39,113 nucleotides of DNA from Candidatus Uhrbacteria bacterium. GTDB taxonomy: Bacteria > Patescibacteriota > Patescibacteriia > JACQRZ01. A program made the translations under genes and the position numbers. This document shows positions 937 through 3,814 of this stretch, one piece after another; within the stretch, counting starts at the first letter, position 1, and each line of letters begins with the position of its first letter. The stretch covers positions 1 through 39,113 of the forward strand of contig JACQRZ010000019.1 in assembly GCA_016206235.1 (NCBI GenBank). The letters are read 5' to 3'. Under the pieces are notes generated by a model that was not told the origin of the DNA, searched no databases, and was given only the letters and a program-made list of their open reading frames with translations.

Positions 937-2655
937 ATGAATAAATTGGCTCAACTTCTCATCAATAAGGGGATGATCAAGGAAAGTGATTGGGATGTGC
1001 TCCAATCCGAGGCTGCCAAAGCACATATCCGCATTGAAGATCAGCTCGTAAAGAAAAAGATCATTTCAGAAAAAAATCTTGCCAATCTCCAAGGCGAGTT
1101 ATTTGGATTGCCATTTATTGATCTTGAAAAAGCAGATATTCCGCGCGAGATGCTCACTGTTATTCCTCAAGCAGTCGCGGAGAACTACGAGCTCGTCTTA
1201 TTTGAAAAAAAGGGACATGAAGTAAAAATCGCTCTTGTAGATCCTAGCAATTATCGTGCAATTGAAGCCATTGATTTTTGGGCAAAAAAAGAAGGGTACA
1301 AGCTCTCGCTCTATATCACGACGCTGAGTGGATATCGTAACGCCATGAAAAATTATGTTGTGGTAAAAAAAGAGGTACACGAGGCTCTTGACGTGCTTGA
1401 ACAACAGCATGCGTCCGACGCGCGCGGTAAGCGCCAGGAAAAACTCGTTGAAATTATTCGCAAAGCGCCAGTTGCAAAAATCGTTGCGCTCATGATTCAA
1501 GAAGCTGTTGATTTGAATACTTCCGATATTCACATCGAGCCGGGTTCCGCAGAGTCCCGTATCCGATTTCGCATTGATGGCATGCTGAAGACGTATCTTG
1601 CGTTTCCCACATCATTTCACACATCAATTGTATCGCGCATTAAAGTGCTTGCCGATCTGAAGATCGACGAAACGCGCATACCGCAAGATGGCCGTATTCG
1701 CATGAATATTTACGGGCAAGACATTAACTTGCGCGTCTCAACACTGCCCCTTATCGATAATGAAAAAGTGGTGATGCGTATTTTGCCGACTGCTTCAAAG
1801 GTGATCACCCTTCAAGAACTTGGTTTTTGGTCGCACGCTCTTGATGATCTCAATAGAATCATCGCCCGTCCTACAGGTGTATTACTCGTAAGCGGACCGA
1901 CAGGCTCTGGTAAATCAACAACGCTGTATTCGCTTTTGACAGCACTCAACAACGATAAGAGCAATATCACGACACTTGAAGATCCCGTTGAGTATTTTTT
2001 GAGTGGGGTCAACCAAGTGCAGATTAGCACTGAAGTAGGTTTAACGTTTGCCTCAGGTCTTCGGGCAATTTTGCGTCAGGACCCCAATATTGTGATGGTT
2101 GGTGATATCCGTGATAACGTGACAGCAGAACTTTCAACACACGCCGCTTTGACTTGTCATTTTATGCTTTCTACTATCCATGCAAAAGATGTGCTTGGCG
2201 TTATTCCACGTTTGATCGACATGCACGTTGAACCTTTTCTTATTTCTGCGGCGCTCAACACCATTATTGCACAGCGTTTAGTTCGCAAGCTGTGTGACAA
2301 GTGCAAAGAGCCTCAACAAATTCCTCAGTTGCTCGAAGCAGAGGTGCGCAAGGAACTTGACTTGATACCTCAGAAAGATGTGTTAGAAGGCATTGATCTT
2401 TCCACCCTCACTGTCTATCAAGGAAGGGGATGTGAGGCGTGCAATAAGAATGGATATAAGGGGCGGACCGTTGTTTCAGAACTCTTAGCTATGACAGAGA
2501 ACCTTACGCAGATCCTTTCAGCGAAATTTTCTCTTGAAGATCTTTCAAAAGAAATGAAGATCCAGGAAAAGATGACACTCAAGCAAGACGCAATTGTGAA
2601 AGCATTGAAAGGCCTTACGTCGATCGACGAGTTTATTCGGGTTACACGAGAGTAA
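937..2655 (+). CDS. pilB: Type IV pilus assembly (extension) ATPase PilB / GspE family
   Basis: 572 aa. It has Walker A GPTGSGKST, a Walker B region DPNIVMVGDIRD (Asp where GEIRD is usual), a His box LSTIHAKD and a tetracysteine motif CDKC...CEAC. Confidence 0.9.
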   Translation: MNKLAQLLINKGMIKESDWDVLQSEAAKAHIRIEDQLVKKKIISEKNLANLQGELFGLPFIDLEKADIPREMLTVIPQAVAENYELVLFEKKGHEVKIALVDPSNYRAIEAIDFWAKKEGYKLSLYITTLSGYRNAMKNYVVVKKEVHEALDVLEQQHASDARGKRQEKLVEIIRKAPVAKIVALMIQEAVDLNTSDIHIEPGSAESRIRFRIDGMLKTYLAFPTSFHTSIVSRIKVLADLKIDETRIPQDGRIRMNIYGQDINLRVSTLPLIDNEKVVMRILPTASKVITLQELGFWSHALDDLNRIIARPTGVLLVSGPTGSGKSTTLYSLLTALNNDKSNITTLEDPVEYFLSGVNQVQISTEVGLTFASGLRAILRQDPNIVMVGDIRDNVTAELSTHAALTCHFMLSTIHAKDVLGVIPRLIDMHVEPFLISAALNTIIAQRLVRKLCDKCKEPQQIPQLLEAEVRKELDLIPQKDVLEGIDLSTLTVYQGRGCEACNKNGYKGRTVVSELLAMTENLTQILSAKFSLEDLSKEMKIQEKMTLKQDAIVKALKGLTSIDEFIRVTRE

Positions 2656-2740: not shown

Positions 2741-3814
2741 ATGGATACCGCCCAAAGTCTTATCTTCAAAAGACTCCTAACCGATGCCGCAAAAAAAGAG
2801 GCATCTGATTTGCACTTAAGCGTGGGATCCCGTCCCATGATTCGCGTCGATGGCGCACTGCGTGTTATGGACGATGAAGATATGATGACGCAAGAATCAC
2901 TCAAAGGTATTGTTGACGCAGTAACAACCGATGAGCAGCGCGCAGAATTAAACACGAAAAAAGATCTTATTTTTACGACCGTTTTTGACAATCGCATTCG
3001 CGCAAAAATCCATATTTTTTTTCAAGAAGGATTTTTTACCGTATCGCTGCGCTTCTTGAGTGTGAACGTAAAAACATTGCGCGAGATGAAGTTGCCCGAA
3101 AGCCTGTTTCATTTTACGCATCTTCAAGACGGACTTGTCATTATTGGGGGAGATAATGGTTCGGGTCGAACAACGCTTGCGGCCGCTTTTCTTGAAGAGA
3201 TTAATCGTTCGAGCGTAAAACATATTCTCACAGTGGAAGATCCGATCGAGTACAATCTGGTAAGCAATAAAAGTATTGTCAATCAGCGAGAAGTTGGAAG
3301 AGACGTGCCATCAATTGAGGAGGGGTTAGTATATGCGCAAAAAGAAGACGTCGACGCAGTATTTATATGCGATCTTGGAAATGAGAGAGTTATTCGAAAG
3401 GCGCTCGAGCTTGCCGACGCCGGCATTCTCGTGTTTGTCATTATGAATACGAACTCGTCATTGACTGCAATTGAACGGATCATTTCGAGCTTTGATGAAC
3501 ATGAACAAGTATTGATTCGGGAGCTTTTGGCTCAAGTATTGCGTGGCATTATTATTCAGTCGCTCGTGCCAAAAATTGGAGGCAGTTTTGTGACGGTCCA
3601 TGAAGTGCTCTTGAATAATGCAGCGGTAAAGACGTTTATCCAGTCTAATAGACTACAACAATTGCCCCAGGTAATCAAAGCATCACGCGCGGAAGGCATG
3701 ATGAGTTTTGATCATGAACTCGCAAAATATGTGAAAGACCAAGAAGTGACAGCCGAGCAGGCACGTGAAGTCGCAAAAGACAAGCAGACACTAGAGTTAC
3801 TCCTGCACACATGA
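2741..3814 (+). CDS. pilT: PilT-like hexameric secretion-ATPase paralogue with degenerate catalytic motifs
   Basis: 357 aa, collinear with PilT (HILTVEDPIEY Asp box, QREVG). Walker A is GGDNGSGRTT (Lys to Arg). The GEMRD region reads CDLGNE. The His box TLHT reads IMNT. AIRNLIRE reads AVKTFIQS. Confidence 0.75.
   Translation: MDTAQSLIFKRLLTDAAKKEASDLHLSVGSRPMIRVDGALRVMDDEDMMTQESLKGIVDAVTTDEQRAELNTKKDLIFTTVFDNRIRAKIHIFFQEGFFTVSLRFLSVNVKTLREMKLPESLFHFTHLQDGLVIIGGDNGSGRTTLAAAFLEEINRSSVKHILTVEDPIEYNLVSNKSIVNQREVGRDVPSIEEGLVYAQKEDVDAVFICDLGNERVIRKALELADAGILVFVIMNTNSSLTAIERIISSFDEHEQVLIRELLAQVLRGIIIQSLVPKIGGSFVTVHEVLLNNAAVKTFIQSNRLQQLPQVIKASRAEGMMSFDHELAKYVKDQEVTAEQAREVAKDKQTLELLLHT

Follow-up and report, generated by a model that had tools for sequence, protein, structure and literature searches.

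A degenerate PilT homologue, predicted to be a pseudo-ATPase, in the type IV pilus operon of a Candidatus Uhrbacteria bacterium

Does a PilT-family ATPase whose catalytic motifs have been substituted still act as a pilus motor, or has it been retained for another function? The question is raised by the gene at positions 2741-3814 of contig JACQRZ010000019.1 (GenBank assembly GCA_016206235.1) from a Candidatus Uhrbacteria bacterium. The whole contig (39,113 nucleotides, forward strand) was analysed and is referred to below as the window; it is contig C6 of a 0.75-Mb genome assembly that consists of 63 contigs and is 89% complete. Type IV pili (T4P) are the best-conserved surface machine of the Candidate Phyla Radiation (CPR)/Patescibacteria, the ultra-small bacteria to which this organism belongs. 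For Saccharibacteria, they have been linked with attachment to hosts, twitching and competence (PMC12206443; PMC9894109). The first-pass annotation of this DNA described the product as a full-length, PilT-like protein in which every catalytic signature is substituted, and proposed a retained non-catalytic role rather than decay.

Based on alignments and a structure prediction, the product is a full-length PilT homologue with the two-domain PilT fold. The open reading frame (ORF) is uninterrupted, with zero internal stops. In a profile search, the 357-aa protein matched TIGR01420 (PilT/PilU) with 285.3 bits across model positions 3-342 of 343, which is below the curated cut-off of the model (319.1 bits). 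HMMER aligned residues 9-355 collinearly with Aquifex PilT (2ewv; E 1.1e-65), and likewise with P. aeruginosa PilT (3jvu) and Geobacter PilT structures, in agreement with the first-pass description. Insertions and deletions in these alignments were at most one residue each, and none fell in the motif regions; the motifs are therefore in register. The same register was obtained in a MAFFT alignment with 77 canonical PilTs and in a Foldseek structural match, and the agreement of all three methods rules out motif mis-registration. An AlphaFold2 model computed from 46 family members reached a mean predicted local distance difference test score (pLDDT) of 93.2 and a predicted template modelling (TM) score (pTM) of 0.89. 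It matched ATP-bound G. metallireducens PilT4 (6ojx_A) with a TM score of 0.93 and a root-mean-square deviation of 1.6 Å over 350 columns. The nearest database relatives are named Candidatus Uhrbacteria or Patescibacteria group, and the proteins are recorded publicly as TadA or as generic type II secretion (T2SS)/T4P/type IV secretion (T4SS) ATPases.

Compared with canonical PilT (2ewv, 3jvu/3jvv, 6ojx; 30-33% identity), the degenerate protein has the same length, two-domain fold, Asp box, arginine fingers, P-loop backbone and CPR operon slot; it differs in its P-loop arginine, the loss of GEMRD and of both His-box histidines, the replacement of AIRNLIRE and an N-terminal MDT extension. Residues were compared among 53 members of the subfamily of the window protein, 54 sequences of the wider degenerate clade (together 107) and 77 canonical PilTs (Table 1). 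Walker A aligned as GGDNGSGRTT versus TGPTGSGKST. Position 143 is Arg in 52/53 subfamily members and Lys in 77/77 canonical sequences; in the wider clade it is Lys in 18 sequences and Arg in 36. Position 144, canonically Ser, is Thr throughout the subfamily (53/53). Walker B aligned as DAVFICDLGNE versus DVIFVGEMRDL. All 77 canonical proteins possess G210, E211, R213 and D214, whereas R213 was found in none of the 107 degenerate sequences and D214 in only 14; position 210 is Ser in 48/53 subfamily members. Position 211, the catalytic Glu, is Asp in the window protein and Glu or Asp in 51/53 of its subfamily, and is acidic in only 25/54 wider-clade sequences. The His box aligned as AGILVFVIMNTN (including AGILVFVIMNT) versus TGHLVFGTLHTN. 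Both of its histidines, H229 and H236, are present in 77/77 canonical sequences, and neither occurs in any degenerate one (0/107 for each); the first of the two positions is mostly Arg or Lys in the wider clade.

Table 1. Features of the degenerate pilT, of the adjoining operon genes and of the canonical pilT of the same genome. Coordinates refer to the window unless another contig (C28) is given.
Feature	Position	Strand	Remarks
Two small genes, 189 aa and 103 aa	46..926	+	Occupy the positions of pilO and of the 108-aa gene before pilB (by position only)
PilB-type extension ATPase, 572 aa	937..2655	+	Directly upstream of degenerate pilT; TIGR02538 503.6 bits, PF00437 392.7 bits
PilB motif VGDIRD	2098-2115	+	Within ORF 937-2655; Asp for catalytic Glu
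PilB motif TCHFMLSTIH	2152-2181	+	Within ORF 937-2655; Cys for His-box Gly (TCH for TGH)
Degenerate PilT paralogue, predicted pseudo-ATPase (P0001)	2741..3814	+	357 aa; PF00437 T2SSE match
Arginine-finger region	2999..3052	+	Alignment; R87 and R104 kept, neighbouring canonical Arg is K89
Walker A GDNGSGRTT	3149..3175	+	Canonical GPTGSGKST; Lys143 to Arg, Ser144 to Thr
Asp box HILTVEDPIEY	3221..3253	+	Alignment; retained; E166 is the Mg-coordinating Glu
Degenerate Walker B DVDAVFICDLGNE	3347..3385	+	Canonical D....VGEMRD; Gly to Cys, Glu to Asp, Arg and Asp lost
Degenerate His box DAGILVFVIMNTN	3416..3454	+	Canonical ETGHLVF.TLHTN; both His lost
AIRNLIRE-equivalent helix AAVKTFIQS	3620..3646	+	Canonical TAIRNLIRE
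Canonical PilT	C28:17136-18128		TIGR01420 393.6 bits; GPTGSGKST, VGEMRD, GHLVFSTLHT

Other parts of the active site are conserved. The P-loop glycines and Thr, the first arginine finger and the Asp-box Glu are essentially invariant across the whole degenerate clade, as is a basic residue (Arg or Lys) at position 143. E166, P168 and E170 do not vary in any of the groups compared; the Asp-box Glu has been described as the Mg ligand of PilT-like ATPases (McCallum et al., 2017; PMC5424180). R87 (53/53 in the subfamily) and R104 (52/53) probably correspond to the two gamma-phosphate-sensing arginine fingers of McCallum et al. (2017). The second finger, invariant in the subfamily, is basic in only 44/54 wider-clade sequences. 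The neighbouring position 89 is Lys in 53/53 subfamily members versus Arg in 77/77 canonical PilTs. Conservation of 98-100% within the subfamily was found for R87, R104, G137, G142, T145, E166, P168, E170, Q182, D188 and D203. The clade has also acquired conserved residues of its own: K18, K89, H91, E96, S210, E223, L262, H287 and the N-terminal MDT, an extension of two to three residues relative to canonical PilT. These clade-specific residues indicate a change of function and not merely a relaxation of constraint. As judged from sequence, the phosphate- and Mg-binding scaffold is preserved, and the residues for hydrolysis and gamma-phosphate coupling are systematically lost. The protein is thus predicted to be a pseudo-ATPase, that is, a PilT homologue without the residues essential for catalysis. 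The earlier claim that every catalytic signature is substituted holds for Walker A, Walker B, the His box and AIRNLIRE; it is a slight overstatement, because position 211 is still acidic and R87, R104, E166 and the nucleotide- and Mg-binding scaffold are kept. The same annotation had rightly listed the Asp box, the overall fold (supported by the structural match to 6ojx_A) and the intact ORF as retained.

The substitutions are shared by many relatives. In a word-indexed search, the degenerate pattern was found in about 52 sequence clusters at 47-63% identity and in six more at 35-40%, with ordinary PilTs ranking below them. An exhaustive HMMER search covered 1.84 billion representatives; among its best 150 matches roughly 95 were single-domain proteins of 320-420 aa, of which about 65 were without the first His-box histidine. 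Nearly all of those were also without GEMRD (P0210 and P0265 are borderline for this loss). An intact orthologue free of stop codons, with 45-58% identity and the same substitutions, was identified in 15/15 other genomes assigned to the taxonomic family of the window genome. In a maximum-likelihood tree of 66 sequences, the degenerate proteins (n = 28) form a single clade with a Shimodaira-Hasegawa-like approximate likelihood ratio test (SH-aLRT) value of 100. The nearest neighbours of this clade are canonical operon PilTs of other CPR (Doudna-, Azam- and Dojkabacteria), and the canonical PilTs of the carrier genomes fall into a separate clade. According to this tree, the motif changes define one old monophyletic clade.

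Selection was compared between the degenerate gene and its canonical counterpart in the same genomes. For close genome pairs, the degenerate gene gave dN values of 0.059-0.106, dS above 2 and a dN/dS ratio (omega) of about 0.02-0.04; dS was saturated in all available pairs, so omega is an upper bound only, below about 0.05. The canonical gene in the same pairs gave an omega of 0.018-0.043, indistinguishable from that of the degenerate one. Mean pairwise identity over 13 genomes was 52.1% for degenerate and 56.4% for canonical PilT. Purifying selection acts on the degenerate clade no less strongly than on canonical PilT. A pseudogene of recent origin, or an artefact of assembly or alignment, is extremely improbable, although the substituted motifs and a TIGR01420 score below the cut-off might point to one. 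The ORF is intact in the window and in every relative from the same family, the same substitutions occur in more than 100 sequence clusters, and the low omega, the clade-specific residues (K89, S210, MDT, H91) and the confident AlphaFold2 model all speak against this explanation. A decaying gene is ruled out by the intact orthologues, the monophyly of the clade and the low omega. The view that the protein has kept a non-catalytic role was thus upheld by its orthologues and by the presence of a canonical pilT elsewhere in the genome (see below), as far as sequence comparison can tell.

A conserved protein could still be a working ATPase with unorthodox chemistry, using the P-loop Arg, an Asp or Glu at position 211 and other residues in place of the His box, perhaps as a slow timer. 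The conservation within the subfamily of an acidic residue at 211, of both arginine fingers, of the Asp-box Glu and of the full P-loop backbone is compatible with this idea. Across all PilT-like ATPases, however, conservation has been reported to be complete for the catalytic Glu, the two arginine fingers and the residues of Walker A and B, and high for one His-box histidine (McCallum et al., 2017; PMC5424180). Position 211 is acidic in fewer than half of the wider-clade sequences, and Lys and Arg interchange at position 143, which speaks for a loss of catalysis already at the clade's base. An engineered Lys-to-Arg change in P-loop ATPases usually abolishes hydrolysis. We regard an active enzyme of this kind as very improbable.

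The gene lies in a pilus operon, 85 bp downstream of pilB. In relative L008 the order is pilM-N-O-x-pilB-(pheST)-pilT' (pilT' being the degenerate gene), and in the more distant clade member L009 it is pilM-N-O-x-pilB-RR-pilT'-pilC-pilin-pilD-minor pilins, where RR is a response-regulator gene. The sizes and order of the two small genes upstream of pilB in the window match those in L008, L009, L079 and L080. In Doudnabacteria and Azambacteria the same slot is held by a canonical PilT, and the Doudnabacteria genome encodes no other PilT. Since the slot belongs to a canonical PilT in other CPR, the degenerate clade is orthologous by position to the operon PilT.

A gene for pilM was detected on another contig (C23:6224-7330, equal to L086:2225-3331; + strand), where it points outward towards the contig end at 7387. 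The window opens with the gene in the pilO position, and contig C23 is probably its direct upstream neighbour, with pilN in the assembly gap.

If the operon PilT is catalytically dead, the motor has to be sought elsewhere, and the second, canonical pilT that the first-pass annotation had suggested looking for is present in the genome on contig C28. Its neighbours encode a protein with an RpoA C-terminal domain (RpoA-CTD), a PD-(D/E)XK nuclease and tyrosyl-tRNA synthetase (TyrRS), which makes it in effect an orphan. Identity between the two paralogues is only about 32%. The orphan proteins carry an AIRNLIRE-like motif (AVANLIRE; SATANIIRT in the window genome). Co-occurrence was assessed in a class sample of 151 genomes, in which the 150 sampled relatives are at least 90% complete; all tallies are approximate and hold among the matches listed. 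The degenerate copy was found in about 65 of the 151 genomes, and about 61 of these carriers (about 94%) have a canonical PilT as well, with a score of 386 bits or more. Canonical PilT alone was found in about 57 genomes and no PilT in about 25. Wherever the sequence of the second PilT-family match was read in further carriers, it was canonical (22/22 genomes); one carrier of the same family, G011 (91% complete), gave no second PilT match at the threshold used. Because canonical PilT stands alone in many genomes, the motor is independent of the degenerate copy, which is then an accessory and not an obligatory adaptor. As far as the motifs and this distribution tell, the degenerate copy does not replace the motor.

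Six genomes from the family of the window genome (G001, G004, G007, G010, G012 and G013) contain, besides the degenerate copy, two canonical PilTs from two distinct clades. Proteins of the first clade have GQTG[NQ]GKS and those of the second GPTGSGKST together with A[IV][AS]NIIR[STV]; the window genome has the second type only.

The pairing of a degenerate and an intact PilT has a counterpart in Vibrio cholerae. It has been shown that V. cholerae PilT with Walker A or Walker B mutations, as well as the natural R206S variant of strain MO10, still functions with PilU, and that in V. cholerae and Pseudomonas aeruginosa PilU acts only via PilT, even when PilT is ATPase-dead (Adams et al., 2019; PMC6762196). 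Here, too, a PilT predicted not to hydrolyse ATP is found beside an intact paralogue, and the Arg adjoining Walker B is missing. The V. cholerae variants, however, carry single-residue changes and come from a laboratory mutant or one strain, whereas the pattern described here spans several motifs, is ancient, extends through the clade and is maintained by selection. In the V. cholerae variants the active partner is PilU; here it is a PilT-like, non-adjacent protein. The degenerate PilT is itself not classifiable as PilU, which keeps Walker A and Walker B as well as the His box intact and has no AIRNLIRE; its own catalytic motifs are degenerate.

By analogy with PilT and PilU, the degenerate operon PilT might serve as a docking adaptor that engages the machine, with the orphan canonical PilT working only through it. 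The R206S variant and the inactivated PilTs that support PilU-dependent retraction (Adams et al., 2019; PMC6762196), the loss of the equivalent Arg (R213) and the catalytically intact paralogue found in nearly all carriers would fit such a coupling. On the other side, the orphan-type PilT evidently works without a degenerate copy in the many class genomes where it stands alone, and its AIRNLIRE-like motif makes it PilT-like, not PilU-like. We consider an obligate adaptor unlikely.

Several PilT-family genes with a division of labour are known from Geobacter (PilT1-4), Myxococcus (PilT, PilU and three more) and Neisseria (PilT2, PilU). Unlike the degenerate PilT, the paralogues of Geobacter and Myxococcus are reported to have kept Walker A and Walker B along with the Asp and His boxes (PMC5065972; PMC13584747), and in a study of Saccharibacteria T4P the Walker boxes were found to be conserved in PilT. 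The co-occurrence of two PilTs in most carriers, together with the full PilT fold and the many ring-forming core residues kept, could also suggest that the degenerate protein is a fixed non-catalytic subunit of a hexamer mixed with canonical PilT or PilB, altering the symmetry, speed or force of the ring. PilT-PilT fusions lend this weak support, as they show that two modules can share one assembly; the fusions found, however, lie outside the degenerate clade. The paralogues, moreover, come from different old PilT lineages and share only about a third of their residues, and the cited publications treat PilT and PilU as separate rings. A fixed mixed hexamer is therefore, in our judgement, improbable, rather more so than the adaptor.

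The tandem PilT-PilT fusions were seen in public metagenomes (P0123-P0130, P0137, P0150, P0185 and P0225; about 660-1020 aa). Some have two complete motif sets; P0124, P0150 and P0185 have degenerate halves, and the P-loop of P0150 reads GANGSGRTT.

Non-catalytic nucleotide-binding paralogues are part of other hexameric ATPases, such as the alpha subunit of F1 and the B subunit of V1, and exemplify the pseudoenzyme concept. The degenerate PilT resembles them in that the fold is kept, nucleotide binding is probably kept and catalysis is predicted to be lost. It differs in belonging to another branch of the superfamily (secretion/PilT-like), and a fixed alternating hetero-hexamer is unsupported here.

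Taking this evidence together, we think it likely that the degenerate protein is a PilT-fold pseudo-ATPase, the positional orthologue of the operon PilT, and a non-motor regulatory or structural part of the T4P machine. Under this proposal, it would still bind nucleotide, with the N- and C-domains closing around it, and would hydrolyse ATP very slowly or not at all. We infer binding and domain closure because the P-loop glycines and Thr, the basic residue at 143, the Asp-box Glu and an arginine finger are conserved. Lys-to-Arg P-loop mutants of other ATPases typically bind nucleotide without hydrolysing it. By itself or together with active PilT, the protein may assemble into a PilT-like ring, which would dock on the PilC/PilM platform of the operon's machine. 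Such a ring could regulate the machine without driving it, for example by sitting at the motor site and gating the access of PilB and active PilT, and its effect might be that of a brake or clutch for both extension and retraction. The power for retraction would come from the canonical PilT on the other contig.

Several points weigh against this proposal. We infer the loss of hydrolysis from the motifs alone; with position 211 acidic in 51/53 subfamily members and the arginine fingers kept, residual or unorthodox hydrolysis may persist. That nucleotide is bound despite the P-loop Arg is presumed from engineered Lys-to-Arg mutants of other P-loop ATPases, and the ring, its docking on PilC/PilM and any contact with canonical PilT or PilB are only proposed. 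In the window genome pilC is not next to the degenerate pilT, so the machine served by the protein cannot be assigned by neighbourhood. Finally, among the matches listed, four carriers (G074, G094, G155 and G097; 91-98% complete) have the degenerate copy only.

A more specific and tentative version, which we hold to be possible but doubtful, is that the operon PilT of this class is, in roughly half of the sampled genomes, an ATP-binding, non-hydrolysing ring that competes with PilB and active PilT for the pilus base and serves as a parking brake or clutch. If so, pili used in host attachment and DNA uptake could be held fixed without ATP cost, which would suit energy-poor episymbionts, and retraction would occur only once the active orphan PilT displaced the dead ring.

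No published description of the degenerate PilT clade was found in a full-text search of open-access papers. What is new here is a clade-wide, predicted pseudoenzyme derived from PilT; pseudoenzymes and multiple PilT paralogues were already known. Genome surveys take the presence of pilT as evidence for retractile pili; here, in a large lineage, the pilT of the operon is predicted not to be a motor, and the likely true motor is a separate gene. A naturally occurring, selection-tested PilT ring that is predicted to be hydrolysis-dead could show how PilB and PilT exchange at PilC and how retraction is gated, two mechanistic problems still to be solved across type IV pili. The TadA and generic ATPase names in the databases would be put right by a dedicated family model.

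The adjacent PilB also has substituted motifs (Table 1). The Asp in place of the catalytic Glu, reported in the first-pass annotation, is real and is confined to this genome: nine orthologous operon PilBs from related genomes, like this genome's four further PilB paralogues, have VGEIRD (in one case IFLGEIRD) and TGH. A PilB defect as a system-wide counterpart of the degenerate PilT is ruled out, as VGDIRD and TCH are unique to this genome. On this comparison, the PilB changes are a lineage-specific curiosity or an assembly variant and not part of the system. Five PilB-like ATPase genes (contigs C41, C4, C27, C28 and C6) were identified versus two pilC and one clear pilM, an unusually high number of PilB-like paralogues for a genome of 0.75 Mb.

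In two related loci a CheY-like response-regulator gene lies between pilB and pilT (L009, 7605-7997; L079, 6579-6977). It precedes the degenerate PilT in L009 and a canonical PilT in the Doudnabacteria operon, and is absent from the operon in the window. As it accompanies both types of PilT, the regulator gene is an ancestral part of the operon, with no specific link to the degenerate PilT. An imperfect hairpin in the spacer between pilB and the degenerate pilT (2664-2722) was considered and rejected: the region 2650-2745 folds with -17.2 kcal/mol (z -1.17), no better than chance, and 24/200 shuffled sequences fold at least as well. The spacer also contains a weak promoter-like match, TTGACG-17-TAAACT, at 2685-2713.

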